Positions 1-51,180 of a DNA stretch of 62,293 bases are shown piece after piece. Position 1 is the first letter of the stretch. The number at the start of each line of letters is the position of its first letter. Location of the stretch: NCBI GenBank assembly GCA_013151555.1, contig JAADIA010000049.1, positions 1-62,293 of the forward strand, written 5' to 3'. A program made the translations under genes and the position numbers. The notes under the pieces were generated by a model. That model was not told the DNA's origin. It did no database searches and worked only from the letters and a program-made list of their open reading frames with translations. Source of the DNA: Nitrospirota bacterium (lineage in GTDB: Bacteria; NPL-UPA2; JAADIA01).

Positions 1-11
1 TGGGAGGTGTA

Positions 12-429: not shown

Positions 430-452
430 GTCAATTAAAAATGCAAAATTAA

Positions 453-526
453 GACAGGATTTACAGGATTAAACCGGATAGAGATGAGGGAATAAGAAAA
501 ATTTAAAAAATCCAGTTAATCCTGGC
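453..526. repeat. Family A palindromic element, copy A1
   Basis: Left arm gacaggatttacaggattaaaccggat; right arm atccagttaatcctg. Confidence 0.75.
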
Positions 527-594
527 AAAAGAAGAGATTTAACCTTGCTTGATTTTGTCTGGGTAAATCAGGATCAATAAACAGGAGAAATGAT

Positions 595-1305
595 ATGATA
601 TCTCAAGAGATGTTGCAAAAAAAAGCGGAAGAACTGGAGTCGGGTAGTGCGGAGGAAATTTTAAAATGGGCTTTAACGGAATATGGAGATAAGGTAGCCC
701 TGGCCTGTAGTTTTGGAGCGGAGGATATGGTGCTCATCGATATGATGGTTAAGATAGACCCGCAAGCGCATATCTTCACTCTGGATACGGGAAGGCTTCC
801 CCAGGAAACTTACGAAGTAATGGAGAGGGTGAGAGAAAAATATGGGGCGAAGATCGCCGTCTTCTTTCCCGATACCAAGTCGGTCGAGGAAATGGAAGAG
901 AAACATGGCCCTAATCTTTTCTATAAGAGTCTGGAGTTAAGAAAATTATGTTGCACCGTTCGCAAGCTTGATCCTTTGAAGAGAGCATTTGCGGCCCTTT
1001 CTGCCTGGGTCTGCGGTCTGAGGAAAGAACAAGCGGTTACGCGTACCGGGATAAAGAAGGTAGAGATTGGCGCAGACCCTAACGCCATAGTCAAGATAAA
1101 TCCTTTAGCCGACTGGACGGAAAAACAGGTCTGGGATTATATTAAGAAGAATGATGTTCCCTATAATAAGTTACATGACCTCAACTTTCCCAGTATCGGT
1201 TGCTTGCCCTGTACCCGGGCGGTAACTCCCGGAGAGGATGTAAGAGCGGGACGCTGGTGGTGGGAAAGTCCGGAGCAGAAAGAGTGTGGATTGCATAAAA
1301 AGTAG
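595..1305 (+). CDS. cysH: Assimilatory adenylylsulfate (APS) reductase, Fe-S cluster CysH type
   Basis: PAPS/APS reductase fold. Cys-Cys pair (KLCCTVRK) plus CLPC (CxxC) and C-terminal catalytic ECGLH. AGGAGA RBS before ATG 595. Confidence 0.9.
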   Translation: MISQEMLQKKAEELESGSAEEILKWALTEYGDKVALACSFGAEDMVLIDMMVKIDPQAHIFTLDTGRLPQETYEVMERVREKYGAKIAVFFPDTKSVEEMEEKHGPNLFYKSLELRKLCCTVRKLDPLKRAFAALSAWVCGLRKEQAVTRTGIKKVEIGADPNAIVKINPLADWTEKQVWDYIKKNDVPYNKLHDLNFPSIGCLPCTRAVTPGEDVRAGRWWWESPEQKECGLHKK

Positions 1306-1395
1306 TTGAAGGTTGAAAGTATAAAGTTGAAAGTAAAAACGCTTTTTAGAGCTTTAAACCTTAAACCTTAAACCTTAAACTTTAAACTTTCAACT
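1306..1395. repeat. Family B heptamer array, copy B1 (inverted blocks)
   Basis: Five units of TTGAARG-type, a spacer, then six units of CYTTMAA-type. The arms are roughly three-quarters complementary by eye. Confidence 0.85.
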
Positions 1396-1407
1396 ATATT
1401 GGAGGTT

Positions 1408-2583
1408 ATGGTGAAAGACCAAATTGAACCCCATGGGGGTAAGTTGATAAATCGGGTGGTTGAAGAACGGGAGAGAGAATCGCTCATTGAGAAAGCTTTC
1501 AATCTCCGAGAAGTTCATCTTAGCAAGAGAGAGGTCTCTGACTTAGAGATGATCGCTACCGGGGCCTTTTCTCCCCTGACAGGGTTTATGGGAAGGGAAG
1601 ATTACGAGAGCGTTCTGGATGTGAAGAGATTGTCCAACGGCCTTGTCTGGACTATCCCCGTTACCCTTTCGGTAAAGGAGGAAGAAGCGAAGAAATTAAA
1701 GGTCGGGGAGGAGCTGTCTCTTCTGGACCCGGCCGGGACAACTCTGGCCATCCTTCATCTTGAAGAGATCTACCCGCATGATAAGGAAAAAGAAGCCCTT
1801 CAGATTTACGGTACCAGGGATAGAAAGCATCCGGGAGTAGATAAAGTTTACCTGATGGGGGAAGTCTTACTGGGAGGGAAAGTTACCGTTATCCGTCTGC
1901 CCAAACATGATGATTTTTCCCCTTACCGGCTTCCGCCCCGGGAGACGAGGAAATTATTTAAGGAAAAGGGCTGGAAAAGAGTTGCTGCTTTTCAAACCAG
2001 AAATCCTATCCATCGAGCGCACGAATATATTCAAAAATGTGCCCTGGAAATAGTGGATGGACTTTTTCTTCATCCCCTGGTAGGGGAGACAAAAGGCAGC
2101 GATATCCCCGCTGATATTCGCATAAAGAGCTATGAAGTCGTCCTGGAGAAATATTATCCTAAAGACAGGTTTATCATGGCCGTTCTCCCCATGGCTATGA
2201 GGTATGCGGGCCCCCGGGAGGCCATCCTCCATGCTCTCGTCCGGAAGAATTACGGAGCTACCCATTTTATCGTGGGAAGAGACCATGCCGGGGCGGGAAA
2301 TTTCTACGGGCCTTTCGATGCTCACTATATCTTTGACGAATTTGAACCGGAGGAATTAGGGATAACTCCCCTGTTCTTCGATAATGCTTTCTTCTGCAAA
2401 CAATGTCAGGGGATGGCTTCTTATAAGACCTGCCCGCATGAGTCCAGCGAACATATCTCTCTCAGCGGGACAAAAGTTCGGAGTCTCCTCCGCAAAAAAC
2501 AGCAACCTCCCGTGGAGCTTACTCGACCGGAGGTGGCTCAGGTATTGATTGAGGGAGCCTCCAGACCGGACTATCAAATATGA
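1408..2583 (+). CDS. sat: Sulfate adenylyltransferase (ATP sulfurylase)
   Basis: QTRNPIHRAHE and GRDHAG motifs, N-terminal PHGG. The ORF track starts at TTG 1399, but GGAGG at 1401-1405 favours ATG 1408 or GTG 1411. Confidence 0.9.
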   Translation: MVKDQIEPHGGKLINRVVEERERESLIEKAFNLREVHLSKREVSDLEMIATGAFSPLTGFMGREDYESVLDVKRLSNGLVWTIPVTLSVKEEEAKKLKVGEELSLLDPAGTTLAILHLEEIYPHDKEKEALQIYGTRDRKHPGVDKVYLMGEVLLGGKVTVIRLPKHDDFSPYRLPPRETRKLFKEKGWKRVAAFQTRNPIHRAHEYIQKCALEIVDGLFLHPLVGETKGSDIPADIRIKSYEVVLEKYYPKDRFIMAVLPMAMRYAGPREAILHALVRKNYGATHFIVGRDHAGAGNFYGPFDAHYIFDEFEPEELGITPLFFDNAFFCKQCQGMASYKTCPHESSEHISLSGTKVRSLLRKKQQPPVELTRPEVAQVLIEGASRPDYQI

Positions 2584-2584
2584 A

Positions 2585-2710
2585 ATCACGCGGTTCTTTT
2601 GCCGCCTGGCTGCGTTACACGCTGCGCTCCCTTGTGCGGCGTACAGAATATGTACGCCTCCGCAGTCGCTTGCGCAAGCCTTGCCAGACCGTCAAAACTC
2701 CTCGCGTGAG
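2585..2710. repeat. GC-rich imperfect palindrome of about 125 bp (single copy in this window)
   Basis: Outer atcacgcg / cgcgtgag, centre ggcgtac-agaatat-gtacgcc, with further partially complementary GC-rich segments. Confidence 0.7.
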
Positions 2711-2761
2711 ATAAGCTAATTACGCCGGCATTCTACAAAGTGTCGGTCCGGGATATGAACA

Positions 2762-3169
2762 ATGCCAATGAAGATAAAGCAATCCTGTTTCTCGGAGATG
2801 GTCGAACATTGTCAGCAGGAACATCCTCATGAAGCCTGCGGGATCCTGGCTGGTAAGGATGACCTGGTAACAAAAGTTTATAAGATGGCTAATACTTCCG
2901 AGACGCCGGAAATCTGTTATTCTATCGACACTAAAGTGTTGATTAAGCTCAATAAGGAAATGAGAAATTCCGGGCTGGAGATGCTGGGGATCTACCATTC
3001 CCATGGGTCCAGTGCTCCTTACCCTTCCGTCCGGGATGTAAAGGATGCGCACTATCCGGAAGCGAGCTATGTTATCGTTTCCTTAACCAATTGCTGCAAA
3101 CCGGAAGTGGCTGCGTTTAAAATCGTAGAGGGAAAGATAGAAGAGGAAGAGTTGATCCTGGACAATTGA
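2762..3169 (+). CDS. Stand-alone JAMM/MPN+ metalloprotease (Mec/HcyD/QbsD-like sulfur-carrier C-terminal peptidase)
   Basis: HSH-x7-S-x2-D in YHSHGSSAPYPSVRD with upstream E-x-x-CG. 135 aa, single domain. Confidence 0.85.
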   Translation: MPMKIKQSCFSEMVEHCQQEHPHEACGILAGKDDLVTKVYKMANTSETPEICYSIDTKVLIKLNKEMRNSGLEMLGIYHSHGSSAPYPSVRDVKDAHYPEASYVIVSLTNCCKPEVAAFKIVEGKIEEEELILDN

Positions 3170-3175
3170 AAAAAT

Positions 3176-3253
3176 AAACCACAAGATTTCACGAGATTAA
3201 CATAAAAAAATAATACAATTTTAAGAATAATCTGGTGTTAATCTGTGGTTAAA
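3176..3253. repeat. Family F palindromic element, copy F1
   Basis: aaaccacaagatttcacgagattaac ... aataatctggtgttaatctgtggttaaa. Confidence 0.85.
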
Positions 3254-3318
3254 TTCGTTGGTATTAGAAGGTTTCTCTATGGTAAAGTTTAATATATTCC
3301 ATATGGGGGAGGATAATC

Positions 3319-3651
3319 ATGGTTAAGGAAATCAATGATAATAATTTTCAAGCGGAAGTTTTAGAAGCGGATTTGCCGGTGCTGGTAGATTTCTGGGCTT
3401 CCTGGTGTGGCCCCTGCAAAAGGCTTGCTCCCCTTATAGAGGAGATAGCCGGGGAATACAGCGGGCGCCTGAAAGTTTGCAAACTTAACGTGGATGATAA
3501 TCCGGCAACGTCCCCGAAGTATGAAATTATGAGCATTCCTACTTTAATCATCTTCAAAGGGGGCGATGCCAAGGAACGGATTGTCGGACTGGTGCCGAAG
3601 TCCGCCCTGGAGGCGAAGATAAAACCGTATCTGAAAAACATAAAAACTTGA
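3319..3651 (+). CDS. trxA: Thioredoxin
   Basis: WCGPC active site, 110 aa, GGGAGG RBS. Confidence 0.95.
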   Translation: MVKEINDNNFQAEVLEADLPVLVDFWASWCGPCKRLAPLIEEIAGEYSGRLKVCKLNVDDNPATSPKYEIMSIPTLIIFKGGDAKERIVGLVPKSALEAKIKPYLKNIKT

Positions 3652-3729
3652 CAGGATTTACACGATAAACGGGATAAAAATAGGGAAAAATTAATATAAT
3701 TAAAAAATAAAAATCCTGTTCATCCTGTC
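3650..3729. repeat. Family A element, copy A2
   Basis: gacaggatttacacgataaacggga ... aaatcctgttcatcctgtc. The trxA TGA stop overlaps its first bases. Confidence 0.8.
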
Positions 3730-3782
3730 AAAAGAAGGAAGCGCTTTTAAGAATACCTGATCCTGTCGAAGGAGTAAAAAAA

Positions 3783-5108
3783 TTGCAATCAAACTCCCAA
3801 CTCTTTTCCCAGGCCCGGAAACACATCCCCGGCGGGGTGAATAGTCCCGTGCGAGCTTTTCAGGCCGTAGGGGGGACCCCGCTCTTTATAGATCGGGCAA
3901 AAGGGTCTAAGCTCTACAGTGCCGAGGGGAAAGAATATCTGGATTACTGTCTTTCCTGGGGAGCTTTAATTCTGGGACATAGTTGTCCCGGCGTCATCGT
4001 CGAAGTAAAGAAAGCCCTGGAGAAAGGAACCAGCTTTGGCGCTCCCACCCGGATGGAAACGGAGTTAGCCCGGAAGGCTTGTGAGGCGGTTCCCTCAATG
4101 GAACTGGTGCGGCTGGTGAACTCGGGAACGGAAGCCGTAATGAGCGCCATAAGAGTTGCCCGGGGCTATACCGGGAGAAATAAAATCATCAAATTCGCCG
4201 GCTCTTACCATGGTCATGCCGATTATCTTCTCGTGGAAGCCGGTTCCGGAGCCATGACGCTAAACGTAGGAACTGGAGATGCCGCCGGAGGGAGGGAAAG
4301 TCAATCTTTGCCGTCCAGTCTGGGGGTGCCGGAAGATTTTACCAAACATACTTTCGTTCTCCCCTACAATAATCTGAAAGCGGTAGAAGAAACCGTCAAG
4401 AAACACGCTGCCGATATCGCCTGTATAATCGTGGAACCTGTTTCCGGGAACATGGGAGTCATCCCTCCGCAGGAAGGTTTCCTGGAAGGTTTGCGCCGGA
4501 CTTGTGACCGGCATGATGTCATCTTAATATTTGATGAAGTAATTACCGGGTTCCGCCTTGCCTACGGCGGAGCCCAGGAACTCTTTTCTCTCAAGGCGGA
4601 TTTAACCTGCCTGGGCAAGATAATGGGAGGGGGGTTCCCTCTGGCGGCCTATGGAGGCAGGAAAGACATCATGGAATGTGTGTCTCCTTTGGGTAACGTC
4701 TATCAGGCGGGAACTCTTTCCGGGAATCCGGTAGCTACCACAGCCGGGCTGGCAACGTTAAATTTGTTATCTTCCCAGAAGGAAGAGTTATATAAATCGC
4801 TGGCAGAGAAGGCTGGTTATCTATATGCCGAAATAAAAAAAGAGGCTGAGAAGTCAGGGGTCGAGATGCAAATTCATCGGGTGGGTTCTATGCTTTCCCT
4901 GTTTTTCACTTCCCGCCCGGTCAGCGATTATGAGACGGCCAAGGCAACGGATACCGTAGCTTACCGCAAATTCTTTCATAAGATGTTGGAGGAAGGGGTT
5001 TACCTTCCTCCCTCCAATTTCGAATCTTACTTTCTCTCCTCTTCCCATAGCGGGGAGGATGTAGAGAAGACGATCCGGGCCGTTGGGGCAGCTATGAAAA
5101 AGATATGA
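3783..5108 (+). CDS. hemL: Glutamate-1-semialdehyde 2,1-aminomutase
   Basis: N-terminal IPGGVNSPVRAF, class III aminotransferase core, GKIMGGGFP Lys region. TTG start with GAAGGAG RBS. Confidence 0.9.
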   Translation: MQSNSQLFSQARKHIPGGVNSPVRAFQAVGGTPLFIDRAKGSKLYSAEGKEYLDYCLSWGALILGHSCPGVIVEVKKALEKGTSFGAPTRMETELARKACEAVPSMELVRLVNSGTEAVMSAIRVARGYTGRNKIIKFAGSYHGHADYLLVEAGSGAMTLNVGTGDAAGGRESQSLPSSLGVPEDFTKHTFVLPYNNLKAVEETVKKHAADIACIIVEPVSGNMGVIPPQEGFLEGLRRTCDRHDVILIFDEVITGFRLAYGGAQELFSLKADLTCLGKIMGGGFPLAAYGGRKDIMECVSPLGNVYQAGTLSGNPVATTAGLATLNLLSSQKEELYKSLAEKAGYLYAEIKKEAEKSGVEMQIHRVGSMLSLFFTSRPVSDYETAKATDTVAYRKFFHKMLEEGVYLPPSNFESYFLSSSHSGEDVEKTIRAVGAAMKKI

Positions 5109-5156
5109 GTCGCGAGTTATCAGAACTAATCACTATTGAAGGCAGGAGGAAAAAAC

Positions 5157-5369
5157 ATGAACCTTGTTATTAATGGGAAGAAGAAAGAATTGGAGGAAGG
5201 AACGACTGTCGGCCGGCTTCTGAAAATAAAAAAAGTCCGGCCCGAGGTAGTAACAGTGGAATTAAATGATCAAATAATTGAGAGAGAGAAATATGGAGAC
5301 ACGATCCTTAAAGAGGGAGACAGGTTGGAGCTGGTCTATTATATGGGAGGGGGAGTTGGTTTAGTTTAA
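5157..5369 (+). CDS. ThiS/CysO-like ubiquitin-fold sulfur carrier with residues beyond the Gly-Gly
   Basis: 70 aa from ATG 5157 (AGGAGGA RBS). Ends ...LELVYYMGGG-VGLV. The tail and the TAA stop lie in the first units of the downstream heptamer array. Confidence 0.75.
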   Translation: MNLVINGKKKELEEGTTVGRLLKIKKVRPEVVTVELNDQIIEREKYGDTILKEGDRLELVYYMGGGVGLV

Positions 5370-5466
5370 AGTTAAAAGTTTAAGGTCTAAAGTTAAAAGT
5401 TTAAGGTTTAAGGTTTAAAGTTGAAGGTTGAGGGTTAGGAATTGCAAAAAGACTTTAGACTTTATG
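5357..5466. repeat. Family B heptamer array, copy B2
   Basis: About 11 tandem GTTWAAR heptamers (5364-5439), then gactttagacttta as a short opposing arm. Confidence 0.85.
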
Positions 5467-5488
5467 TTTTCGGATCAAGGGAGAGATT

Positions 5489-6418
5489 ATGATGCAGTCA
5501 AAGGTGGTTAACAATGTATTGGAACTTATCGGCAATACCCCGTTGGTGAAGATGAACAAAATCGGAGAAGAAAATATGGCCGAAGTTCTGGCCAAGTTAG
5601 AAAGTTTTAATCCCGGAGGGAGCGTTAAGGATAGAATCTGCCTGAATATGATTGAGGATGCCGAGAAGAGAGGCCTTCTCAAGCCGGGGGCGATTGTTGT
5701 GGAGCCTACCTCGGGCAATACGGGAATCGGGTTGGCCATGGTGGCGGCTGTCAAGGGCTATAAATGTATTCTTACCATGCCCGAGACGATGAGCGTTGAG
5801 CGTCGTTATATCCTGGAATCCTATGGGGCCGAGATTGTGCTCACCCCGGGCATTGAAGGGATGATGGGAGCGGTAAAGAAGGCCGAGGAGATAGTCCGGA
5901 ATACTCCTAATTCTTTCTTGCCTCAGCAGTTCAAAAATCCAGCTAACCCGGACGTACACCGTCGGACTACCGCGGCAGAAATATTAGCTGCCACGGAAGG
6001 AAAGTTAGAAGCTTTCGTGGCTGGGGTGGGTACCGGAGGGACGATTACCGGCGTAGGCGAAATACTTAAAAAAGAGATTCCTTCCGTGAAAATCATCGCC
6101 GTCGAGCCGGAAACCTCCCCGGTTCTTTCCGGAGGCGAACCCGGGCCCCATAAGATTCAAGGGATAGGGGCAGGGTTCATTCCCGAAGTGCTTAACCGCA
6201 AGATAATTGATGAGATGATTCCGGTAAGTGATGACGATGCTTTTCATACTACCAAGCGGCTGGCCCGGGAAGAAGGAATCTTCGCAGGAATATCATCAGG
6301 AGCGGCTGTCTTTGCCGCCCTCAAAGTGGCTAAGGATTTAGGTAAAGAAAAGAGAGTTGTCGTTATTCTTCCCGATACCGGGGAGAGATACTTTAGTATG
6401 GAACAATACTTTGAATAG
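5489..6418 (+). CDS. cysK: Cysteine synthase (O-acetylserine or O-phosphoserine sulfhydrylase, CysK/CysM family)
   Basis: PLP fold type II: SVKDR lysine motif, [18 protein letters not shown]. CysK versus CysM cannot be resolved by eye. Confidence 0.9.
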
Positions 6419-6433
6419 AGATAATTTAAAAAG

Positions 6434-6513
6434 CAGAATTAAGGATTAAGTGGTAAGAATTAAGCAAAAACATTTAATTCTTAGAACGAAGTGAGCATCT
6501 TAATCATTAACCC
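6434..6513. repeat. Family E (GGATTAA heptamer) element, copy E1
   Basis: cagaattaaggattaagtggtaagaattaagc ... ttagaacgaagtgagcatcttaatcattaaccc. Confidence 0.85.
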
Positions 6514-6585
6514 TACATCGTTAAATCTCCGCGTCTCTGTGGTTAAGTGTGTTGTAGTACTACCGTAAAAATAAGGAGAGTCTTG

Positions 6586-7449
6586 ATGGCTGAGCACGAT
6601 CTTAATGCGTTGAAAAGCTCGGGATTTATGACCCAGAAGGAGAAAGACCTCTTCTCGGTGAGACTGCGGATTGCCGGTGGGTATATCAAGGCTGAGCAGT
6701 TGCCTAAGTTGGCAGAAATATCCAAGAAGTTTGGGCGGGGGCATCTTCACCTGACGACCAGGCAAGGGATAGAGATTCCTTATGTTCACTTCGATAATCT
6801 GGAGAAGGTGAGAAATGAATTGGCCGAAGTAGGTTTAAAAATAGGAGCTTGTGGTCCCCGGGTGCGGACAGTAACGGCTTGTCAGGGAGAAGCTTGTTCT
6901 CACGGTCTTATTGAAGCTCAGCATCTGGGAAAAAAAATAGACGAGATTTTCTTCGGCCGGTCCGGTATCCCGCACAAGTTTAAGATCTGCGTCACCGGTT
7001 GTCCCAATGCCTGTATCAAGCCGGTGGAGAATGACTTCGGGATAATGGGAGTGGTCAGGAAGATTTTCGTCAAGGAAAAGTGTAACTATTGCCGGTTATG
7101 CCAGGAGGTCTGTCCGGTGGGAGCTATCAAGGTGGAAGAGAACGAACTTCACTATGATCCTTCCAAGTGTATCTTCTGCGGCGACTGTATCTTTGCCTGT
7201 CCCTCCTATGCCTGGGAACAGGAGAAGGTAGGATACAAAATCTTCGTGGGCGGAAAGATGGGCAAGTTCCCTGATCTTGGCCGGGAAGTTTTCAGTTTCT
7301 GGGAGGGAGAAGAAAGACTTTTCCAACTTATCGAAAAGACCCTGGATTTCTATAAGGAAGCAGGGAAAAAGGGAGAGAGGTTCGGAGGAACCATCGGTCG
7401 GATTGGGCTGGATAATTATAAAGAGAAGATGGAGGCGGCTATCGCATGA
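6586..7449 (+). CDS. Small sulfite/nitrite reductase-like protein with inserted 2x[4Fe-4S] ferredoxin domain (AsrC/Dsr-LP-like)
   Basis: Nitrite/sulfite reductase ferredoxin-like half-domain (LRIAGG...[11 protein letters not shown]). Cys clusters TACQGEAC and CVTGCPNAC. Two CxxCxxCxxxCP-type motifs ([24 protein letters not shown]). Likely start ATG 6586 after AAGGAGAG. Confidence 0.7.
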
Positions 7450-8642
7450 TAAAGATCTATCTTGACCAGGCAGCGGCAACTCTCCCTCTGCCGGAAGTGG
7501 TAGAGGAGATGATTCCTTACCTGAGGGAGAAGTTCGGTAACCCTTCCAGCCTCCACGAGGTCGGACAGGTGGCCAGAAAGGCAGTGGAAGAAGCCCGGGC
7601 TCGGGTAGCCGGACTGATCAAAGCCGACCCGGAAGAGATCTTCTTCACCTCCGGAGGGACAGAGTCCAACAATTTTGCTTTGAAGAGTATGGCCTTTGCT
7701 CATCAGGATAAAGGGAAGCATATCGTTACCTCGGTCATTGAGCACCATTCCATAATTCATTCGGCTAAGGCCTTAGAGAAATTAGGATTTGAAGTAACTT
7801 ATCTCCCGGTAGACAAATTTGGTTTTGTTGACCCCCGGGCGGTAAAGGGAGCCTTGCGGGAAGGGGAGACGATCCTCGTTTCCATCATGCATGCTAATAA
7901 TGAGGTAGGAACGATCGAGCCCATAGCGGAAATCGGCCGGGTGATAAAAGAATATAACGAAAATTTGGCCTCGAAATCCGGGCGGCGAATTTACTTTCAT
8001 ACCGATGCCGTCTCCACAGTGGGGACAATTCCCGTGGATGTTAAGGAGTTGGGAGTAGACCTTTTGAGTTTGGCGGCTTGCCAGTTCTATGGTCCTAAAG
8101 GAGCGGGAGCTCTCTTTGTTAAAAAGGGAGTCCGGATTATACCTTTCCTCCACGGAGGCATTCAAGAGGGGGGAAGGCGGGCCGGAACGGAGAATGTCGC
8201 CGGAATCGTCGGTTTGGGGAAGGCTGCGGAGATAGTCTCCCGAGAAATGGGTTCCTGGAACGAACGGATAACCGGTCTGAGGGACCGCTTGATAAACGGC
8301 TTGCAGGAAAAGATAGACCATCTTTACCTGAATGGTCATCCCACTAAAAGGCTTCCCGGAAACGTGAATGTCTGTGTAGAGTTTATAGAGGGAGAATCCA
8401 TGCTCCTTTATCTGGGTATGGAAGGGATTGCTGTTGCCAGCGGTTCGTCCTGCACCTCCCACGCCTTGAAAGCTTCCCATGTCCTTGTAGCTTTAGGGGT
8501 GGACCCGGCCTTAGCTCAAGGTTCGCTCCTCTTCAGCTTGGGGAAAGACAACAGTGAGGAAGACATCGATTGTGTCCTGGAGGAAATGCCTCCGATAGTC
8601 AACCGTCTGAGGCAGATGTCACCGCTTTATAAAAAACCGTAA
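7446..8642 (+). CDS. iscS: Class I cysteine desulfurase (NifS/IscS)
   Basis: [15 protein letters not shown], active-site loop ASGSSCTSH. The start overlaps the upstream stop (ATGA at 7446-7449). Confidence 0.9.
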
Positions 8643-8785
8643 CCACGGATAAACTAACTAAAAAGGTAAAGCACAAAATTAAAAGAGATGAAACCCCGAG
8701 ATTATCCAAGATTTACACGAGAGAAGAGAGAACAAGAACAAATTTAGAGATTACTAAGAAAAATCTTGTAATAATCCCTGCCCTC
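8641..8785. repeat. Family F-like element, copy F3 (degenerate)
   Basis: aaccacggataaac ... ccgagattatccaagatttacacgag ... aaatcttgtaataatcc. Confidence 0.55.
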
Positions 8786-8832
8786 CTCAGGAGGGTGGAT
8801 AACCTGTATCTGCAACTTATCACGGTGAGATT

Positions 8833-9084
8833 ATGGAAGAGATAAAAGTAGACGAGACTTTAGATTGTTTTGGCCTTATCTGCCCGGTGCCGGTGCATCT
8901 CACGGCCAAAAAGATAAAGCAATTTCAGGTAGGGCAAGTCCTGGTAGTGATTGCCGACGACCCCGACTCTCTGCAGGACATACCTGCCTGGTGCAAGTCC
9001 AGTGGGCATAAGCTCCTCCGGTTCGAACCGGAAGGAAATATCTATAAATTTTACATCAGGAAAGAAGCCGAGCAGAATAAATAG
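8833..9084 (+). CDS. TusA/SirA-like sulfurtransferase
   Basis: 83 aa, LDCFGLICPVP (CPxP motif). Confidence 0.8.
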   Translation: MEEIKVDETLDCFGLICPVPVHLTAKKIKQFQVGQVLVVIADDPDSLQDIPAWCKSSGHKLLRFEPEGNIYKFYIRKEAEQNK

Positions 9085-9188
9085 GGCGGAGAAGAAGAGC
9101 AAGGGAAGCAGGAGGGTGGATTTAAGTTGATATTATTCCCGTCTCCAGATATAATAAGGGAAGTTAAGGCAGAAAAAAAGGGTTAACC

Positions 9189-9425
9189 ATGAGCGAAATG
9201 AAAGCGGATGAAAAGTTAGATTTAAGGGGAGAGATTTGCCCCTATAACTTTGTGAAAACGAAGCTCAAACTGGAAGAGATGGAGATAGGACAGATATTGG
9301 AAGTGGTTATTGATAATGGGGAACCGATAAAGAATGTTCCCCGCAGCCTGAAAGAAGATGGACATCAAATTCTTAAAGTGGAGAGAATTGAGCAGTATTT
9401 CAAGTTGGTGATAAAGAAGAGTTAA
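9189..9425 (+). CDS. TusA/SirA-like protein, variant motif
   Basis: 78 aa, LDLRGEICPYNF: the Cys-Pro is kept and the second Pro is lost. The stop lies in heptamer array B3. Confidence 0.7.
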   Translation: MSEMKADEKLDLRGEICPYNFVKTKLKLEEMEIGQILEVVIDNGEPIKNVPRSLKEDGHQILKVERIEQYFKLVIKKS

Positions 9426-9451
9426 AAGTTTAAGGTTTAAAGTTTAAAGTA
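9421..9451. repeat. Family B heptamer array, copy B3
   Basis: gttaaaa gtttaag gtttaaa gtttaaa gt. Confidence 0.8.
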
Positions 9452-9458
9452 AGATGGG

Positions 9459-10706
9459 GTGATGAAAGTGTCTTATGTGAAAGGTTTGAAATGTCGGGAG
9501 TGTGGACGGCACTATCCTAAGGAAGCCCTCTATGTCTGTGAATACTGTTTTGGCTCCCTGGAAGTTGATTACGACTACGCTCGCATCAAGAAAAAACTCA
9601 CTCGAAAAGAATTGACCTCCCGCCCGCAGAACCTCTGGCGTTATAGAGAGCTCCTCCCTCTTGATAAAGCGCCAACCGATGGGATGGGTTCGGGATTTAC
9701 CCCTTTGATAAAAGCCGATAACCTGGCCCGGGAATTGGGAGTCAGGGAACTTTATATAAAAGACGATTCGGTTAACCATCCTACCCTCTCTTTCAAGGAC
9801 CGGGTAGTAGCTGTAGCTCTCTCCAAAGCCAAAGAGTTTGGCTTCGATACGGTAGCCTGTGCTTCAACCGGAAACCTGGGTAATTCAGTATCCGCCCAGG
9901 CAGCAAAGGCAAATCTTGAACGCTATATCTTCATTCCTGCGGATTTAGAGATGGGCAAAGTAATCGGCTCGCTTATCTATGCTCCGAACCTCATCGCTGT
10001 GGAAGGAAACTATGATGAAGTAAACCGTCTCTGTGCCGAGATTGCCTTCAGATACAAATGGGCTTTCGTGAACATCAATATCAGGCCTTACTATGCCGAA
10101 GGGTCAAAGACTTATGCCTATGAAATAGCGGAGCAGTTCGGGTGGCGGGCTCCGGACCATATCGTTGTTCCCTCTGCCGGGGGTTCTCTGATTACGAAAG
10201 TCTGGAAGGGTCTCAACGAACTCTATAAAATCGGCTTAATCGATGATAAACCGCGGACCAAAGTTTATTGTGCCCAGGCAGAAGGATGTGCTCCTATAGT
10301 CACGGCCATCAAGGAGAATAGCGAAGTAATCAAACCGGTAAAACCGCAGACTATCGCTAAATCTCTGGCCATCGGCAACCCCGCTGATGGCTACTATGCC
10401 GTGAACACTGTCCAGACAAGCGGCGGTTGGGGAGAGGAAGCCGACAATGAGGAAATTGTGGAAGGAATGAAACTCCTGGCGCGAACGGAAGGAATCTTCA
10501 CCGAGACTGCCGGAGGGGTAACGGTGGCCGTAACTAAAAAATTGATTGCCCAGGGCCGGATTCCCCGGGACGAATCTATAGTGATTGCCATAACCGGAAA
10601 CGGTCTCAAGACTCAGGAAGCAATCTCCGAGCATATCGGGAGATTTACCAAGATAAAACCGACCCTGGCTTCTTTTGAGAAAAAAGTAAAAGCTCGCCGG
10701 CGTTAG
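9459..10706 (+). CDS. Threonine synthase-family PLP enzyme with N-terminal zinc ribbon (ThrC or MetM-like)
   Basis: CRECG...CEYC ribbon, SFKDR PLP-lysine motif, ASTGN. Start ambiguous (GTG 9459, ATG 9462 or GTG 9468). Confidence 0.8.
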   Translation: MMKVSYVKGLKCRECGRHYPKEALYVCEYCFGSLEVDYDYARIKKKLTRKELTSRPQNLWRYRELLPLDKAPTDGMGSGFTPLIKADNLARELGVRELYIKDDSVNHPTLSFKDRVVAVALSKAKEFGFDTVACASTGNLGNSVSAQAAKANLERYIFIPADLEMGKVIGSLIYAPNLIAVEGNYDEVNRLCAEIAFRYKWAFVNINIRPYYAEGSKTYAYEIAEQFGWRAPDHIVVPSAGGSLITKVWKGLNELYKIGLIDDKPRTKVYCAQAEGCAPIVTAIKENSEVIKPVKPQTIAKSLAIGNPADGYYAVNTVQTSGGWGEEADNEEIVEGMKLLARTEGIFTETAGGVTVAVTKKLIAQGRIPRDESIVIAITGNGLKTQEAISEHIGRFTKIKPTLASFEKKVKARRR

Positions 10707-10730
10707 AATAAGGAACTGAATGAAAAAACA

Positions 10731-10819
10731 GACAGGATTAACAAGATATACCGGATGGTTTTAAAAACAAAACTTTACAAAAAATTTTTAGACATCCGGT
10801 TAATCCCGTAAATCCTGTC
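10731..10819. repeat. Family A element, copy A3
   Basis: gacaggattaacaagatataccggatgg ... gacatccggttaatcccgtaaatcctgtc. The first 21 nt are identical to A4. Confidence 0.85.
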
Positions 10820-10848
10820 AGATTTTCTTTTTTCAAGGAGGGACCAAG

Positions 10849-11130
10849 ATGCCCATCAAAGTGAAGATACCCACGCCTTTACAGAAATTGACTAAGAATC
10901 AGGCTGAGGTGGAGAGTGAAGGGAAGACTGTCCAGGAGTTAATTGATGACCTGGAAAAGAATTATCCCGGGATCAAGGAAAGAATCTGCGATGAAAAAGG
11001 AAAAGTACGCCGGTTCATAAATATCTATGTGAACGAAGAAGATGTGAGGTTCTTGAAGGGGGATGATACTCCCGTAAAAGATGGAGATGAGATATCCATT
11101 ATCCCGGCTATTGCAGGAGGAGCAAGTTAG
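10849..11130 (+). CDS. MoaD/ThiS-family sulfur carrier ending GG-AS
   Basis: 93 aa. C-terminus ...[23 protein letters not shown]. Confidence 0.8.
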
Positions 11131-11236
11131 CCCTCACTTCGTTCAGGGCTAACTTAATTGCAAATTGAAGATTGGAAATTGAAAATTTTAAAATAAAAAA
11201 AGTTTCTTTGAAAAGCATCTTTTTTTAATTTTCGAC
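11127..11236. repeat. Family G element (hairpin plus AAATTGA heptamers), copy G1
   Basis: ttagccc-tcacttcgttca-gggctaa hairpin holding the carrier gene's TAG stop, then aattgca aattgaa gattgga aattgaa aatttta. Confidence 0.8.
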
Positions 11237-11256
11237 TATATAAGTGAGGTTGTAAG

Positions 11257-12060
11257 ATGTCCGATTTTACCGATGAGCAGGTTAAAAGATACAGCCGGCA
11301 GATAATTCTGCCTCAGGTAGGAGGGAAAGGACAGAGGAAACTGTTCGAGGCCAAAGTTCTTATCATTGGAGCCGGAGGTTTGGGTTCGCCCGCCTCCCTT
11401 TACTTAGCCGCAGCGGGGGTAGGCCATCTTGGCATAGTTGATAGCGATGAGGTAGAGGTAAGCAATTTGCAACGGCAGATATTACACTCTACCCGCGACG
11501 TCGGCAGACCGAAAACGAGCTCGGCTAAAGATAGATTAACGAACCTCAATCCTGATGTGGAAGTAATTGTTCATGAGGTGCGTGTTACCTCGGAGAACAT
11601 TCTGAATATAATTAAAGATTACGATATCGTCATTGACGGCAGCGATAATTTCCCTACCCGTTATTTGGTAAACGATGCCTGTGTTATATCCAGGAAACCT
11701 TTATCTCACGGAGGAATATTTCGCTTTGACGGCCAGGCAATAACCATCATTCCGGGCAAAGGTCCCTGCTACCGCTGTCTTTTCCCCGAACCCCCTCCCC
11801 GGGGATTGGTTCCCAGTTGCCAGGAAGCAGGAATTCTGGGAGCAGTAGCGGGAGTCATCGGTCTCATTCAAGCCAATGAAGTATTAAAATTTATCCTGGA
11901 CATAGGGGAACTGTTGGTGGGGAAACTTCTTATTTTCAACGCTCTGGAATCCAGCTTCCGACAGGTTGCCGTCCCCAAGGATAAAAATTGTCCCGTCTGC
12001 GGAGATAATCCTACCATAACTGAGTTGATCGATTACGAAGAATTTTGTTCACTTCGGTGA
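11257..12060 (+). CDS. MoeB/ThiF/HesA-family E1-like adenylyltransferase without a rhodanese domain
   Basis: RYSRQI, GAGGLGSP nucleotide loop, two CxxC pairs (CYRC, CPVC). 267 aa. Confidence 0.85.
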   Translation: MSDFTDEQVKRYSRQIILPQVGGKGQRKLFEAKVLIIGAGGLGSPASLYLAAAGVGHLGIVDSDEVEVSNLQRQILHSTRDVGRPKTSSAKDRLTNLNPDVEVIVHEVRVTSENILNIIKDYDIVIDGSDNFPTRYLVNDACVISRKPLSHGGIFRFDGQAITIIPGKGPCYRCLFPEPPPRGLVPSCQEAGILGAVAGVIGLIQANEVLKFILDIGELLVGKLLIFNALESSFRQVAVPKDKNCPVCGDNPTITELIDYEEFCSLR

Positions 12061-12068
12061 GGATAAAA

Positions 12069-12206
12069 AACCTAACCGCAGAGATACGGAGGACACGGAG
12101 AAACCTCTGAAAAAATTTGTAACTATAGATTATCACAAGATTAACAATTAAAAAAAGAATTAGATTAAATCTTTTTCTGGGTAAATCTCGTGAAATCTTG
12201 TGGTTT
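12069..12206. repeat. Family F element, copy F2
   Basis: The right arm aatctcgtgaaatcttgtggttt (12184-12206) is the exact reverse complement of the F1 left arm (3176-3198, 23 nt). The left part is aaccgcagagatacggaggacacggag. Confidence 0.85.
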
Positions 12207-12272
12207 ATATTTTATCCTCAAGGTTTTTCTCGGTGAGTTCTGTGGTGAAAATAAATAGTGGAGGTAAAGAAA

Positions 12273-12512
12273 ATGGCTAAACAAATGGTCAAATTGACTT
12301 TTCCCCAGGAGTTGATTAAAGAACCGGTTACCTTTAAAATGGCCAAGAAATATGACATCATCCCCAATATCCGCCGAGCCCGGGTCAGTGAGACCGTAGG
12401 GGAAATCGTTCTGGAACTGGAAGGGAAGAAAGAGAATCTGGACAAAGGGATCAAATATTTAGAGAAGCGTAATGTCAAAGTCGAACCGATAGTAGGAGAC
12501 ATCGTAGAATAA
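12273..12512 (+). CDS. Stand-alone NIL-domain protein
   Basis: 79 aa from ATG 12273 (GGAGGT RBS). Resembles the MetN C-terminal NIL domain (VKLTFP...EPV...NI..A.V...GEIVLELEG). Confidence 0.6.
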   Translation: MAKQMVKLTFPQELIKEPVTFKMAKKYDIIPNIRRARVSETVGEIVLELEGKKENLDKGIKYLEKRNVKVEPIVGDIVE

Positions 12513-12676: not shown

Positions 12677-13639
12677 TCAACTTTTCAGCAGTTCCGAAAG
12701 GATGCCAAGCATCTTTTCCATACTTTGCTGCCAGGTATAATGAGCATAAACATGTTTCTGCCCGGCCGCGGCAATCCGTTTTCGTTCTTCCGGCTTCTCC
12801 CGGTAATAGTCAAGGAGTTGGAGACATTCACGGTAACGGTTTTTCCATCCCTTCCCGAGAGGAAACCAGACCAGATGTTCTCTGTCGGTGAACCATTTTT
12901 CTAATCCGGGGACATAAGAAGTCAGATGAAATCCCCGGCAGGCCAGGGTGAGAAAGGTGCGGTCGGAGAAATAATCCGGGATAGTCTGTTTGTCATTGAG
13001 ACCAAGGACGATTTCGGCACCCGAACAGACCCGGGCAAAATTCTCGCTGTCCCGGAGTTCCCCTTGATAAGGAAGGTCGTCCGGCCAGGAGGGAGAGCCC
13101 CATATCTTTACCTGGAAGCCTCGCTTCTTTACCTGTCTCAGGAGTTGTTCCCGGCCGGCTTTGTTCGTCCCGACAAAAGCTACTTCGCATCGATAGAGAG
13201 AAGAGTCAGATTCTATATAGCGATGAACTTCGGGATCACATCCTTCCCAGAGGTGATGGACGTTGTTGAATCCCAGGCGCCGATACTTATCTCTTAACCC
13301 TCCGGCGGTAACAAAGAAGGAATCTGCTTCCCGTCCCAGACGCACTAACCATCTCGGGATAGGCGAATCCATATAGCGCAGGGAAGCATGGCAGGTTTTC
13401 CGGATTTCCAGAAGGGTAGCGGGAGAGATGCCTTCTCCTTTTACCAGGAGGAAAACGTCCGGCTTTTCCTGCCGGACGGTATCAATCATCCGTGCCTGCA
13501 TCTTCTCGTTCCCAAGCTCCCGGCGTTCCCGGCGGTAATCGAAAGGGACGACTTTTTGGCCAAGTCCCTCCAGAGCTTTCTTCATAAAAACTACTGTTGA
13601 TGAGGATTTCTCTAAAGAACCGGACAGGATGATTTTCAT
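12677..13639 (-). CDS. CgeB-family / DUF3880-type glycosyltransferase-like protein
   Basis: 320 aa. Pattern resembles spore-maturation CgeB/YkvP GT1-like proteins. Its start overlaps the stop of the upstream GT4 gene (ATGA). Confidence 0.55.
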   Translation of the reverse strand: MKIILSGSLEKSSSTVVFMKKALEGLGQKVVPFDYRRERRELGNEKMQARMIDTVRQEKPDVFLLVKGEGISPATLLEIRKTCHASLRYMDSPIPRWLVRLGREADSFFVTAGGLRDKYRRLGFNNVHHLWEGCDPEVHRYIESDSSLYRCEVAFVGTNKAGREQLLRQVKKRGFQVKIWGSPSWPDDLPYQGELRDSENFARVCSGAEIVLGLNDKQTIPDYFSDRTFLTLACRGFHLTSYVPGLEKWFTDREHLVWFPLGKGWKNRYRECLQLLDYYREKPEERKRIAAAGQKHVYAHYTWQQSMEKMLGILSELLKS

Positions 13640-14736
13640 TGTTCAAGTTCCCTCAAAATCCTTTGGCTTATCGTCCGCCAACTCAATTCTTTTTCTATCC
13701 TTTTTCTTCCCTTCTCCCCCAGATTTTCGGCTAAACTTTCCTCTGTGAGTAATCTAATCAAAGCTGCAGCAATTTCCTCATGGTTCAAAGGGTCGGTCAA
13801 TAAACCGGTTTCTCCCTCAATGACGGCATCCTTGACACCGCCGCTTCTCCCTCCAATAACCGGTTTGCCGCAGGCGTTGGCTTCCAGGAAGACGATTCCG
13901 AAACCTTCAAAATCTCCTTCCTCCTCGATCTCCCGGCTGGTCATAATGAAAACATCGCCGGCATTATAACAAAGGGGGAGTTCTTCTGAGGAGACGTAAC
14001 CGGCAAAGATTACCTGACGCTCTACTCCGTAGTGGCGAGCTAATTGCCTCAGCCCATCTTCTTCGGGTCCTTCCCCCACGATGAGATAGACGGCTTCCGG
14101 AACTCTCTCCAGGACTTTAGGCAAAGCTTGAATAATCTTCCGGTGCCCTTTTCGCTTCACCAAATGAGAGACGGTCAGAATAACCTTCCGGTCGAATAGG
14201 TTGAATTTCTCTTTTAGGGAAGAAGAGTCGATTCCCGGCTTAAATCGTTCCGGATCAACCCCGTTGGGGATAACGGTTATTTTCTCCTCCGGGATTCCTA
14301 TCCGGACCAGCTCCCGGGCGGTGAAATGACTCACTGCCAATATCCTTCGGGCTCTCTTAAAATTTTCCCGGATGGATTTCCTCCTCCAGGGAAGCAAAAC
14401 CTCGCCTCCGTGGGCAACAATGTAGTAATCGATTCCCCAAAGACGATGAGCCCAGGAGGCCAGAGCGGCATAGTCTGCCCGATGAGCCACGAGGATTTTT
14501 TCTATCCTTTTCCTCCACAAAATCCAGAAGAATTTCAGATAGAGTCCTATCTTACTTTTCGCCCGGATTACCGGGAAGACCTGTTCCCGGTCGAACTCTA
14601 TATCTCCTTCAGTCCCGGGAGCGAGGACGGTAACCTCCTCTCCCCAGGAGGACAGACCCCGGGCCACCTCGTAAGAGTAAGTCTGGATCCCTCCTACTTG
14701 AGGAGGAAAATCATGAGTGCAGAGCAAAATACGCAT
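13636..14736 (-). CDS. Glycosyltransferase family 4
   Basis: N-terminal FPPQVGGIQ, C-terminal E-x7-E region (EGFGIVFLEANACGKPVIG). Confidence 0.8.
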   Translation of the reverse strand: MRILLCTHDFPPQVGGIQTYSYEVARGLSSWGEEVTVLAPGTEGDIEFDREQVFPVIRAKSKIGLYLKFFWILWRKRIEKILVAHRADYAALASWAHRLWGIDYYIVAHGGEVLLPWRRKSIRENFKRARRILAVSHFTARELVRIGIPEEKITVIPNGVDPERFKPGIDSSSLKEKFNLFDRKVILTVSHLVKRKGHRKIIQALPKVLERVPEAVYLIVGEGPEEDGLRQLARHYGVERQVIFAGYVSSEELPLCYNAGDVFIMTSREIEEEGDFEGFGIVFLEANACGKPVIGGRSGGVKDAVIEGETGLLTDPLNHEEIAAALIRLLTEESLAENLGEKGRKRIEKELSWRTISQRILRELEQ

Positions 14737-14743
14737 TATAATA

Positions 14744-14775
14744 GTCTAAAGTTAAAGGTTGAAAGTTTAAAGTAT
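14744..14775. repeat. Family B heptamer array, copy B4
   Basis: gtctaaa gttaaag gttgaaa gtttaaa. Confidence 0.8.
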
Positions 14776-14800
14776 TCTTTTAACAATAACCGTAATCAAG

Positions 14801-15961: not shown

Positions 15962-15967
15962 TTTTTT

Positions 15968-46175: not shown

Positions 46176-46185
46176 CTTATCTCCC

Positions 46186-46295
46186 CTTTCAACCTTAAAC
46201 TTTCGACTTTAAACTTAAAACATAGACTTTGGACCTACAGTACCGACCTTAGACTTAAGACCAGACAAATTTTTAGTCTTAGGTCTATAGTCTTA
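46186..46295. repeat. Family B-like heptamer array with hairpin, copy B7
   Basis: ctttcaa ccttaaa ctttcga ctttaaa cttaaaa ..., then gaccttagacttaagac / gtcttaggtctatagtc inverted arms. Confidence 0.8.
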
Positions 46296-46301
46296 TTTTC
46301 T

Positions 46302-51134: not shown

Positions 51135-51180
51135 AGCTCCACCACTTAGGTCGCCTCCGGCGGCAACAGATATAAAGAAA

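Follow-up and report, generated by a model that had tools for sequence, protein, structure and literature searches.

A candidate MetM-type homocysteine synthase with its sulfur carrier in a sulfate-assimilation operon of a Nitrospirota bacterium

The ThrC-like protein encoded in a sulfur operon of a Nitrospirota bacterium (assembly GCA_013151555.1) is very probably a MetM-type, PLP-dependent homocysteine synthase, with a 93-aa MetO-type carrier, a rhodanese-less E1, a JAMM protease and, probably, a NIL-domain protein as its partners (Table 1). The window, i.e. the whole stretch of DNA that was analysed, comprises 62,293 nucleotides of contig JAADIA010000049.1. The assignment draws on the genes present, on similarity at the level of orthologues, on placement in the clade, on conserved synteny and on pathway context, and from these we infer the chemical steps, the carrier pairing and the role of the NIL protein. 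Most likely, the module is a further copy of a known carrier-dependent homocysteine route, which amounts to an annotation correction and not to a new kind of system. In Streptomyces albulus, MetM (a ThrC homologue) and MetO (a carrier), together with Mec and MoeZ, convert O-phosphohomoserine into homocysteine, as listed by GapMind 2026 (Hasebe et al. 2024, Appl Environ Microbiol 90:e0124724, via PMC13759103). A sequence-only reading of this DNA had pointed to such a MetM/MetO precedent on O-phosphohomoserine in Streptomyces, and the precedent exists. The three ORFs it placed on the plus strand (ThrC-like protein, 93-aa carrier and E1) are found where it put them, and the JAMM gene it named at 2762–3169 is real, with an intact motif. 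Its module extent of 9459–12060 was right for these three genes; the end at 12060 was not, since the array continues past the E1 gene into a NIL gene.

Table 1. Genes of the module and of the surrounding operon in the window.
Feature	Position	Strand	Evidence
Sulfate-assimilation genes, co-directional with the module	595..8642	+	Pfam, NCBIfam
JAMM/JAB metalloprotease (Mec+/HcyD-like)	2762..3169	+	PF14464 88.9 bits
ThiS-like second carrier of 77 aa with C-terminus GGG-VGLV; CysK-type cysteine synthase	5136..6418	+	TIGR01683 73 bits, TIGR01139 475 bits
Two TusA/SirA-type sulfurtransferases	8833-9084, 9189-9425	+	PF01206 88 and 85 bits
Candidate MetM-like homocysteine synthase (ThrC-family PLP enzyme)	9459..10706	+	Pfam, NCBIfam, clade placement
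MetO/CysO-type sulfur carrier, 93 aa, ThiS/MoaD fold	10849..11130	+	PF02597 80 bits
E1 adenylyltransferase (MoeB/ThiF/UbaA type), 267 aa, rhodanese-less	11257..12060	+	PF00899 294 bits
NIL-domain protein of 79 aa, stand-alone; closes the array	12273..12512	+	PF09383 62.1 bits, cut-off 24

The enzyme candidate is a 415-aa ORF of the PALP/ThrC family (PF00291, E 1.4e-68 in a profile search). Its start is probably the ATG at 9462 and not the GTG at 9459, because the N-termini of homologues agree with the former. The PLP lysine is K113, within an S-F-K-D-R motif that is invariant across the alignment. Residues 1–55 give no alignment to solved ThrCs; this region holds an N-terminal ribbon (C12-x2-C15...C27-x2-C30) whose cysteines are kept in 95–100% of the MetM-like clade and in none of the aligned canonical ThrCs. 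The ribbon is also present in 22/22 ThrC-like representatives outside both groups, and the Zn ribbon is therefore not diagnostic of MetM.

Comparison with actinobacterial homologues revealed 49–57% identity over residues 10–408 in 80/80 cases (49–53% for those of Streptomyces), as against 37–38% with the canonical ThrC of the same genome and with actinobacterial canonical ThrCs. A SAM-I riboswitch (RF00162, 55–82 bits) lies directly upstream on the same strand in 25/25 tested actinobacterial loci, nine of them from Streptomyces species, in agreement with what has been described for S. albulus metM (PMC12172450). The Streptomyces metM orthologues (nine species other than S. albulus) were recognised by this riboswitch together with a downstream carrier. 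In an IQ-TREE phylogeny of 76 rows, a MetM-like clade of 38 rows is split from the rest at 100/100 support. It contains the ThrC-like protein of the window and all riboswitch-linked genes, while the opposite side holds the canonical ThrCs together with the remaining ribbon-bearing groups. The phylogeny against bona fide ThrC that the sequence-only reading had proposed as a check thus comes out in its favour.

The carrier gene begins 142 nt downstream of the ThrC-like gene, an arrangement that is conserved: a carrier gene is directly downstream in 23/29 loci from other bacteria, and the small ORF in this position in 45/80 actinobacterial loci is 46–55% identical to the 93-aa carrier. The protein ends in AIAGG-AS, with the Gly-Gly at residues 90–91 and an AS tail behind it, and trimming would therefore be required. 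Tails of 1–8 residues past GG are found in 14/23 homologous carriers. The proposal that the JAMM protease removes the residues after Gly-Gly gains from these tails, and it fits the published dependence of MetO maturation on Mec. The JAMM motif E...HxHx7SxxD is intact (E24, H78-x-H80-x7-S88-xx-D91), and L117 and L118, two related operons, contain JAB genes as well. The ThiF domain of the E1 is complete. The MoeZ model NF005902 covers only positions 14–274 of 392 (355 bits vs a cut-off of 647); the protein is predicted to work like MoeZ/HcyF, yet its architecture is not that of MoeZ. E1 genes with 59–72% identity occupy the equivalent position in other genomes, and a tblastn search found no second E1 in this one. 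A predicted complex of the enzyme with carrier residues 1–91, built on the analysis's own alignments, scored 0.47 (best of three controls, 0.00), with at least 63% contact agreement between runs and a partner pLDDT of at least 83. The mark of 0.47 is reached by 58/80 solved complexes and 2/110 mismatched pairs; such passing scores at 0.60 or under come from only 7/80 solved complexes, plus both passing mismatches. The prediction lends weak support to the pairing, and the pass may be due to likeness to the solved CysM–CysO complex (3dwg).

Carrier identity is the point on which an improbable alternative turns, namely that the ThrC-like enzyme sulfhydrylates O-phosphohomoserine by means of free sulfide, which the adjacent sulfite reductase would provide, and that the 93-aa carrier is a CysO for the CysK-type enzyme or a MoaD in molybdopterin synthesis. 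The best solved relatives of the carrier are indeed CysO proteins (4n6e_B and 3dwg_C, the latter with E 4e-23), its identity to CysM-adjacent actinobacterial CysO (43–51%) is nearly as high as that to MetM-adjacent, Streptomyces-type MetO (49–55%), and a carrier tree does not separate MetO from CysO. Moreover, two further module-bearing genomes (G020 and G027) hold a single carrier together with both ThrC-like and CysK-like genes. Against this stands the conserved position of the carrier directly behind the ThrC-like gene. Its C-terminal ...SIIPA(I/V)AGG is of the MetM-adjacent type, whereas CysM-adjacent carriers have ...LPAVAGG; this motif and the neighbourhood of the two genes are all that speaks for MetO over CysO. 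The MetO thiocarboxylate is the sulfur donor of the published MetM (PMC13759103). Furthermore, the CysK gene is preceded by a ThiS-like carrier of its own, both here and in genome G024. This pair presumably forms a cysteine branch using the same E1 and JAMM protease. As for a MoaD function, the genome encodes MoaA, a molybdopterin oxidoreductase and a molybdate transporter, and the 93-aa and 77-aa carriers are its only two ThiS/MoaD-family genes. Still, neither MoaE nor a real ThiG was found in the genome, and with only two carriers and one E1 available an assignment of the carriers as MoaD or ThiS is disfavoured. With MoaA and a molybdoenzyme encoded in the genome, Moco synthesis may be a further use of the E1 and of a carrier.

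Very improbable is a second reading, in which the protein is a second functional threonine synthase, perhaps a moonlighting threonine deaminase, that merely sits beside sulfur genes. Its scores exceed the cut-offs of the threonine synthase models TIGR00260 (288.6 bits, curated cut-off 167) and NF006050 (307 bits, curated cut-off 303), and the PLP lysine and many other ThrC residues are conserved. A homologue from Microcystis with 51.6% identity to MetM reportedly acted in vitro as a threonine synthase and as a deaminase (PMC12172450), which counts against the MetM reading. Conversely, the ThrC-like protein is not the only ThrC of the genome, and the second, canonical thrC that the sequence-only reading had pointed to as a check exists: it lies on contig C6 (338 bits) between hom and an alternative homoserine kinase gene (TIGR02535, 557 bits). 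In addition, the association with a carrier, an E1, NIL or a SAM riboswitch is kept across phyla, and MetM is frequently misannotated as threonine synthase according to the GapMind authors (PMC13759103).

The MetM-like clade retains the PLP lysine and the S-x-G-N loop, and carries a signature that in the ThrC-like protein reads L140, N207, R209, Y212, G311 and T385. In comparison to 16 canonical ThrCs, L140 stands for Thr, N207 for Ser and R209 for Asn, while Y212 stands for Arg and G311 for Trp, each at 100% against 100%. In T. thermophilus numbering, the canonical Thr88, Ser155, Arg160 and the Trp of N-P-A-S-W correspond to L140, N207, Y212 and G311. In ThrC, these four reportedly hold the phosphate (Omi 2003, Murakawa 2011). 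Such clade-wide replacement of otherwise invariant residues, i.e. Thr to Leu, Arg to Tyr and Trp to Gly, argues against a second threonine synthase. Finally, it is hardly credible that the enzyme makes cysteine from O-phosphoserine and the carrier thiocarboxylate, a CysM-like job on a ThrC fold. In favour of this reading, the carrier is like CysO, no methionine synthase was found that would use homocysteine, and the ribbon region is matched by the model of cysteate synthase (TIGR03844), a ThrC relative whose substrate is O-phosphoserine. Against it, the 65 bits of that match are far under the cut-off of 325, and a CysK-type enzyme with a carrier to itself is already encoded in the operon. Moreover, control of the actinobacterial members of the clade is by SAM (methionine) and not by cysteine, and the NIL association suggests methionine metabolism.

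The surroundings of the module are those of sulfate assimilation. The upstream genes encode a PAPS/APS reductase, ATP sulfurylase, thioredoxin, a HemL-like protein, a small ferredoxin-inserted sulfite reductase and NifS, and the gene order is nearly identical in the genome G024, which belongs to another phylum. Both TusA genes are directly upstream of the ThrC-like gene, and TusA likewise precedes it in loci L117, L155 and L157; SirA is described as the constant companion of rhodanese-less E1s in this type of operon (PMC1779556). At the other end of the array, NIL homologues are found beside ThrC-like or carrier genes in 15/29 other bacterial loci, and in three genomes NIL is fused after the GG of the carrier. 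NIL domains are also part of the DUF39 homocysteine pathway (PMC5764234). The NIL protein is probably a methionine-related, ligand-binding partner. Outside Actinobacteria the MetM module is usually accompanied by a NIL-domain protein, a candidate for a regulatory role. Rfam searches of the window gave a tRNA as the sole match and no riboswitch of any kind, SAM included; the operon of G024 had no SAM riboswitch either. For the window, this absence speaks against the MetM reading.

From the gene content the following sequence of reactions may be proposed. Sulfate would be reduced by the ATP sulfurylase, APS/PAPS reductase and small sulfite reductase of the operon. The JAMM protease would cut off the two residues behind the Gly-Gly of the carrier, and the E1 would adenylate the exposed glycine. 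Formation of the carrier thiocarboxylate could then draw on sulfide directly or on a NifS/TusA persulfide relay, which would substitute for the missing rhodanese domain. With O-phosphohomoserine supplied by the homoserine kinase encoded with canonical thrC on C6, the ThrC-like enzyme would eliminate phosphate, and the thiocarboxylate would attack C-gamma, instead of water at C-beta. After an S-to-N acyl shift, the JAMM hydrolase would free homocysteine and regenerate the carrier. The NIL protein would probably bind methionine or a related metabolite and tune the module, the part played in Actinobacteria by the SAM riboswitch.

In line with such a route, the genome, which is 94% complete, yielded no MetA, MetX, true PF01053 enzyme (MetB/Y/Z) or DUF39 protein; the search for metY, metB or metZ that the sequence-only reading had suggested thus returned none. 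G020 and G027 likewise lack PF01053 enzymes, and both have MetH. A methionine synthase was not detected in the genome by PF02574 or PF01717, and the single TIGR02082 (MetH) match, on contig C92, is AcsE in a Wood–Ljungdahl cluster and so not a methionine synthase. In G024, which is 98% complete and has the same operon, neither a MetH homocysteine domain nor a MetE/Mes-type domain was recognised. The slot held by a homocysteine methyltransferase gene in relatives is occupied here by a ParA-like gene, and homocysteine is therefore without a visible consumer, which weighs against the MetM reading. A rather unlikely, tentative extension is that a novel homocysteine methyltransferase completes the pathway, maybe with a methyl group from the Wood–Ljungdahl corrinoid protein on C92, and that NIL is a methionine-sensing subunit replacing riboswitch control.

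Mis-binning or recent transfer of the operon was ruled out on composition, as the GC content (0.469 vs 0.455 ± 0.014) and the tetranucleotide distance of the operon (0.0082, within the 12-kb background of 0.0095 ± 0.0021) are unremarkable. An older transfer is possible. The phylum comprises 13 species genomes, and a MetM-type gene was found in this one and in none of the 12 others. Outside the phylum, the MetM route was detected in 53/288 sampled bacterial genomes. Because the gene scores above the cut-offs of TIGR00260 and NF006050, pipelines will mislabel it “threonine synthase” and predict methionine auxotrophy; once it is recognised as MetM-type, a homocysteine route is restored to this small genome of 1.8 Mb.

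Several known systems share parts of this arrangement. Krishnamoorthy and Begley reportedly described in 2011 the Wolinella succinogenes proteins HcyS/HcyD/HcyF/MetY/Sir, with homocysteine as the product, and the Wolinella carrier is said to have extra C-terminal residue(s) that are taken off by a JAMM protease. The Wolinella-type operon corresponds to the gene neighbourhood that Iyer, Burroughs and Aravind catalogued in 2006 as type 4e, which combines a ThiS/MoaD carrier, JAB, an always rhodanese-less E1, SirA/TusA, PAPS reductase, ATP sulfurylase and sulfite reductase (PMC1779556). The operon of the window shares this gene content and, by our reading, a carrier tail removed by JAMM and homocysteine as product. 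Still, the Wolinella acceptor is the O-acetylhomoserine sulfhydrylase MetY (fold type I, PF01053), whereas the window encodes a ThrC-like enzyme of fold type II with O-phosphohomoserine as presumed substrate, in a genome with no PF01053 enzyme or homoserine acyltransferase. The MetM route thus appears able to replace MetY inside a long-known carrier-based sulfate-assimilation operon.

The carrier is close to CysO of the M. tuberculosis CysO–CysM–Mec+–MoeZ system (3dwg, 4n6e), and the logic would be common to both: a thiocarboxylate attacks a PLP-bound phospho-amino-acid intermediate, and a JAMM hydrolase frees the product. The M. tuberculosis acceptor is, however, a CysM/CysK-fold O-phosphoserine sulfhydrylase that yields cysteine, whereas the carrier of the window neighbours a ThrC-like enzyme and the CysK-type enzyme has another carrier, a ThiS-like one, as its partner. 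With canonical ThrC (TIGR00260; 1uim, 6cgq, 2zsj, 2d1f) the enzyme shares the fold, the PLP-lysine motif and presumably the substrate O-phosphohomoserine; it differs in the extra N-terminal four-Cys ribbon, the clade-wide residue replacement, the genomic context and an identity of only 37–38%.

The likeness is greatest to MetM/MetO. As in S. albulus, a ThrC homologue is followed directly by the gene of a MoaD/ThiS-fold carrier, a separate canonical ThrC exists, and an E1 and a JAMM hydrolase are required; identity to the Streptomyces orthologues is 49–53% for the enzyme and 49–55% for the carrier, and the enzymes share one clade. Unlike the Streptomyces system, the window has a stand-alone NIL protein instead of a SAM riboswitch, and unlike MoeZ, its E1 is without a rhodanese domain and is adjoined by two TusA and NifS. 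The window carrier has an AS tail whereas most actinobacterial MetO end at GG, and all parts are gathered in one array with the sulfate-reduction genes, whereas those of the S. albulus system are dispersed.

An IQ-TREE phylogeny (LG+G4, 1000 ultrafast bootstraps and SH-aLRT) was computed from 76 rows: the ThrC-like window protein and homologues close to it, representatives of 50% clusters, 13 actinobacterial proteins with a linked riboswitch, four proteins of other module-bearing genomes, 16 canonical ThrCs, and other ribbon-bearing ThrC-like groups. The tree leaves out representatives that are fragments, as well as locus L131, which has masked residues. A bipartition supported at 100/100 unites 38 rows, among them the window protein and all of the riboswitch-linked ones, against all others; the opposite side holds the canonical ThrCs, in a clade of their own (100/99), and the remaining groups. 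The window protein thus falls into a MetM-like clade with the riboswitch-linked orthologues, apart from bona fide ThrC.

The sequence-only reading had pointed to a Streptomyces precedent for such an enzyme, and this precedent exists: the GapMind 2026 entries for MetO, Mec, MoeZ and MetM, all from Streptomyces, are marked as experimental and cite Hasebe et al. 2024, MetM being listed as "MetO-thiocarboxylate-dependent homocysteine synthase" (PMC13759103). The metM gene of S. albulus has an upstream SAM riboswitch, and cyanobacteria have homologues (PMC12172450). The link to MetM was made indirectly, via other Streptomyces and actinobacterial orthologues. A search of 1.84 billion representatives returned full-length relatives of the ThrC-like protein at 44–59% identity, one from a Micromonosporaceae genome; an alignment headed by that protein then retrieved 80 named actinobacterial loci (12 Streptomyces, 4 Kitasatospora). 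A SAM-I riboswitch (Rfam) lies immediately upstream on the same strand in all 25 loci tested, and a small ORF ending in ...IIPAVAGG lies 3' of the MetM-like gene in 45 of the 80. These two features identify the loci as the published metM-metO operons. Over residues 10–408, all 80 homologues share 49–57% identity with the window protein, and the window carrier is 46–55% identical to the downstream ORFs. Each of five actinobacterial genomes additionally encodes a canonical ThrC of roughly 354 aa, as does the present genome. The combined data support assignment of the window module to the MetM/MetO kind, as the sequence-only reading had proposed for the ThrC-like enzyme, the GG-AS carrier and the E1.

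Residues of the 38 MetM-clade rows were compared with the 16 canonical ThrCs, using T. thermophilus numbering via the 1uim alignment. Both groups share the PLP lysine (K113) and the S-x-G-N loop. Several ThrC-invariant residues are changed across the whole MetM clade, namely Thr88 (L140 in the window protein), Ser155 (N207), Asn157 (R209), Arg160 (Y212), the Trp of N-P-A-S-W (G311) and the Asp of G-L-K-D (T385). We take Thr88, Ser155, Arg160 and Asn188 to hold the phosphate that ThrC keeps to steer water to C-beta. Such remodelling of the phosphate site would be expected for an enzyme admitting a bulky thiocarboxylate to C-gamma. The N-terminal four-Cys ribbon is not diagnostic of MetM, since it is present in all MetM-clade rows and also in all 22 non-MetM, non-canonical rows.

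The gene belongs to a single co-directional array spanning bases 3–12512. The coordinates and gene descriptions of the sequence-only reading proved right, including a JAMM gene with the complete motif E...HxHx7SxxD; the closing NIL-domain gene is an addition. The contig (C53) matches in composition the remainder of the assembly (1.81 Mb, 99 contigs, 93.7% complete). Elsewhere on it, a PelG-type exopolysaccharide exporter, a PelF-like protein and a GGDEF/GAF protein suggest a Pel-like polysaccharide locus.

Features of the sulfur gene array and of the remainder of the contig
Feature	Position	Strand	Remark
NifU	3-368	+	
PAPS/APS reductase	595-1305	+	
ATP sulfurylase	1399-2583	+	
JAMM/JAB protease	2762-3169	+	
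Thioredoxin	3319-3651	+	
HemL-like aminomutase	3783-5108	+	
ThiS-like carrier	5136-5369	+	77 aa, C-terminus GGG-VGLV
CysK-type cysteine synthase	5489-6418	+	
Small sulfite reductase	6547-7449	+	ferredoxin insert
NifS	7446-8642	+	
TusA (two copies)	8833-9084, 9189-9425	+	
ThrC-like gene	9459-10706	+	likely start ATG at 9462
MoaD/ThiS-fold carrier	10849-11130	+	93 aa, C-terminus AIAGG-AS
Hairpin	11118-11160	+	gttagccc ... gggctaac
ThiF/MoeB E1	11257-12060	+	267 aa, without rhodanese domain
NIL-domain protein	12273-12512	+	79 aa, closes operon
lpxK, MsbA-like ABC exporter, several GT4/GT2 genes	12677-17599		
PelG-type exporter and adjoining PelF-like protein	44772-48638	-	PelF-like: 778 aa; HEAT repeats, DUF3492, GT1 glycosyltransferase domain
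GGDEF/GAF protein	49749-51185		

Two paralogous carriers are found in Actinobacteria, one adjoining MetM and ending in ...SIIPAVAGG, the other located between Mec and CysM and ending in ...LPAVAGG, often with two further residues. The window carrier has the MetM-type C-terminal ending; the carrier tree does not split MetM- from CysM-adjacent carriers. A predicted complex of the ThrC-like enzyme with the carrier scored 0.47, against 0.00 for the best control, and lends the pairing weak support; a similar complex, CysM-CysO, is already solved. In six of the 45 actinobacterial MetM-adjacent carriers (L077, L064, L078, L088 and two more loci) the protein ends in GG-Cys instead of GG, which would fit the published dependence of MetO maturation on the Mec hydrolase. 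The 5' arm of the hairpin holds the last codons of the 93-aa carrier and its TAG stop, and AT-rich heptamer-like repeats lie between hairpin and E1 gene. Since homologues commonly carry 1–3 residues after GG, the AS tail is not a peculiarity of the hairpin. The ThiS-like carrier encoded upstream of CysK ends in GGG-VGLV, and its homologue in G024, a genome of another phylum, in GGG-R.

A canonical thrC (TIGR00260, 338 bits) is present on contig C6, so that the ThrC-like protein is not the only ThrC of the genome. Its neighbours are a homoserine dehydrogenase gene on one side and, on the other, a homoserine kinase gene of the TIGR02535 type, which scores 557 bits and passes the cut-off; O-phosphohomoserine is thus made. 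At 93.7% completeness, no true Cys/Met-metabolism PLP enzyme (metY, metB or metZ) was found, the best PF01053 match scoring 32 bits, and neither were MetX, MetA or DUF39/HcyBio. The only E1 and both ThiS/MoaD-family genes of the genome lie in the array; no MoaE and no real ThiG were found in the genome. On contig C92 (locus L151, 3-8852) lie genes for a molybdopterin oxidoreductase exported via TAT and its 4Fe–4S subunit, for MoaA and a NarJ-like chaperone, and for a molybdate transporter of the MOT1 type. Either moaDE may be unassembled, or the carrier and E1 of the sulfur operon may also serve Moco synthesis.

Searches of the genome for known methionine synthases came up empty: neither PF02574 nor PF01717 gave a match. 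A TIGR02082 (MetH) match on C92 was rejected, being AcsE within a Wood-Ljungdahl cluster (C92:9391-14892, L151); this part comprises the AcsE methyltransferase and corrinoid Fe–S subunits resembling AcsC and AcsD, which are separated by a 646-aa protein; the assignments come from ORF N-termini and a pterin-domain match. These genes point to a probable anaerobic lifestyle and a methyl-corrinoid pool. A homocysteine S-methyltransferase gene of roughly 300 aa is present in eight of the phylum's 12 other genomes; in both relatives whose loci were fetched (G007 and G012) it sits between priA and an epimerase. The same slot here (C5:3466-4666; L120:3740-4495, - strand) holds a 251-aa ParA/CbiA-like ATPase, and a tblastn search with the relatives' methyltransferase returned nothing from this genome. 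Neither PF02574 nor PF01717 was found in G024 (98% complete), which has the same sulfur operon; MetH is present in two further module-bearing genomes, G020 and G027. The PF01717 screen is silent in Methanosarcina, for which MesC is reported; divergent Mes-type enzymes could therefore escape it.

Outside the phylum, homologues of the ThrC-like protein at E <= 1e-90 occur in 53 of 288 sampled genomes. The other 12 of the phylum's 13 species genomes (0.8–1.8 Mb) showed neither a MetM-like gene nor any PF01053 enzyme and so seemingly cannot make homocysteine de novo, the present genome being the exception. G024 has a nearly identical long operon with a 74% identical ThrC-like protein, G020 and G027 shorter versions. 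Among 29 loci sampled with 1.5-kb flanks, 23 have the carrier gene immediately 3' of the ThrC-like gene; post-GG tails measure 0 residues (7 loci), 1–3 (12), 7–8 (2) or about 80 (2). The longest tails, and that of the G027 carrier, are NIL domains. A NIL homologue, stand-alone or fused after the Gly-Gly, adjoins the module in 15 of the 29 non-actinobacterial loci; all 80 actinobacterial loci lack one. Besides the window gene, NIL copies were noted at L118:12224-12772 and in L161, L179 and others. The actinobacterial SAM riboswitches and the NIL proteins of other bacteria are therefore complementary, and the NIL protein is a putative metabolite-sensing partner of the module. NIL domains occur also in the methionine importer MetN. 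They are likewise part of the DUF39 homocysteine pathway (PMC5764234); the literature search found no paper tying NIL to MetM/MetO.

The operon type is already known, as neighbourhood type 4e of Wolinella, Geobacter and clostridia (Iyer, Burroughs and Aravind (2006), PMC1779556); what is new here is a further MetM/MetO member. The array in the window is of the same type, with the MetM-like enzyme replacing MetY. The Wolinella member was reportedly later shown to produce homocysteine. Compared with type 4e, the array adds the ThiS-CysK pair and NIL.
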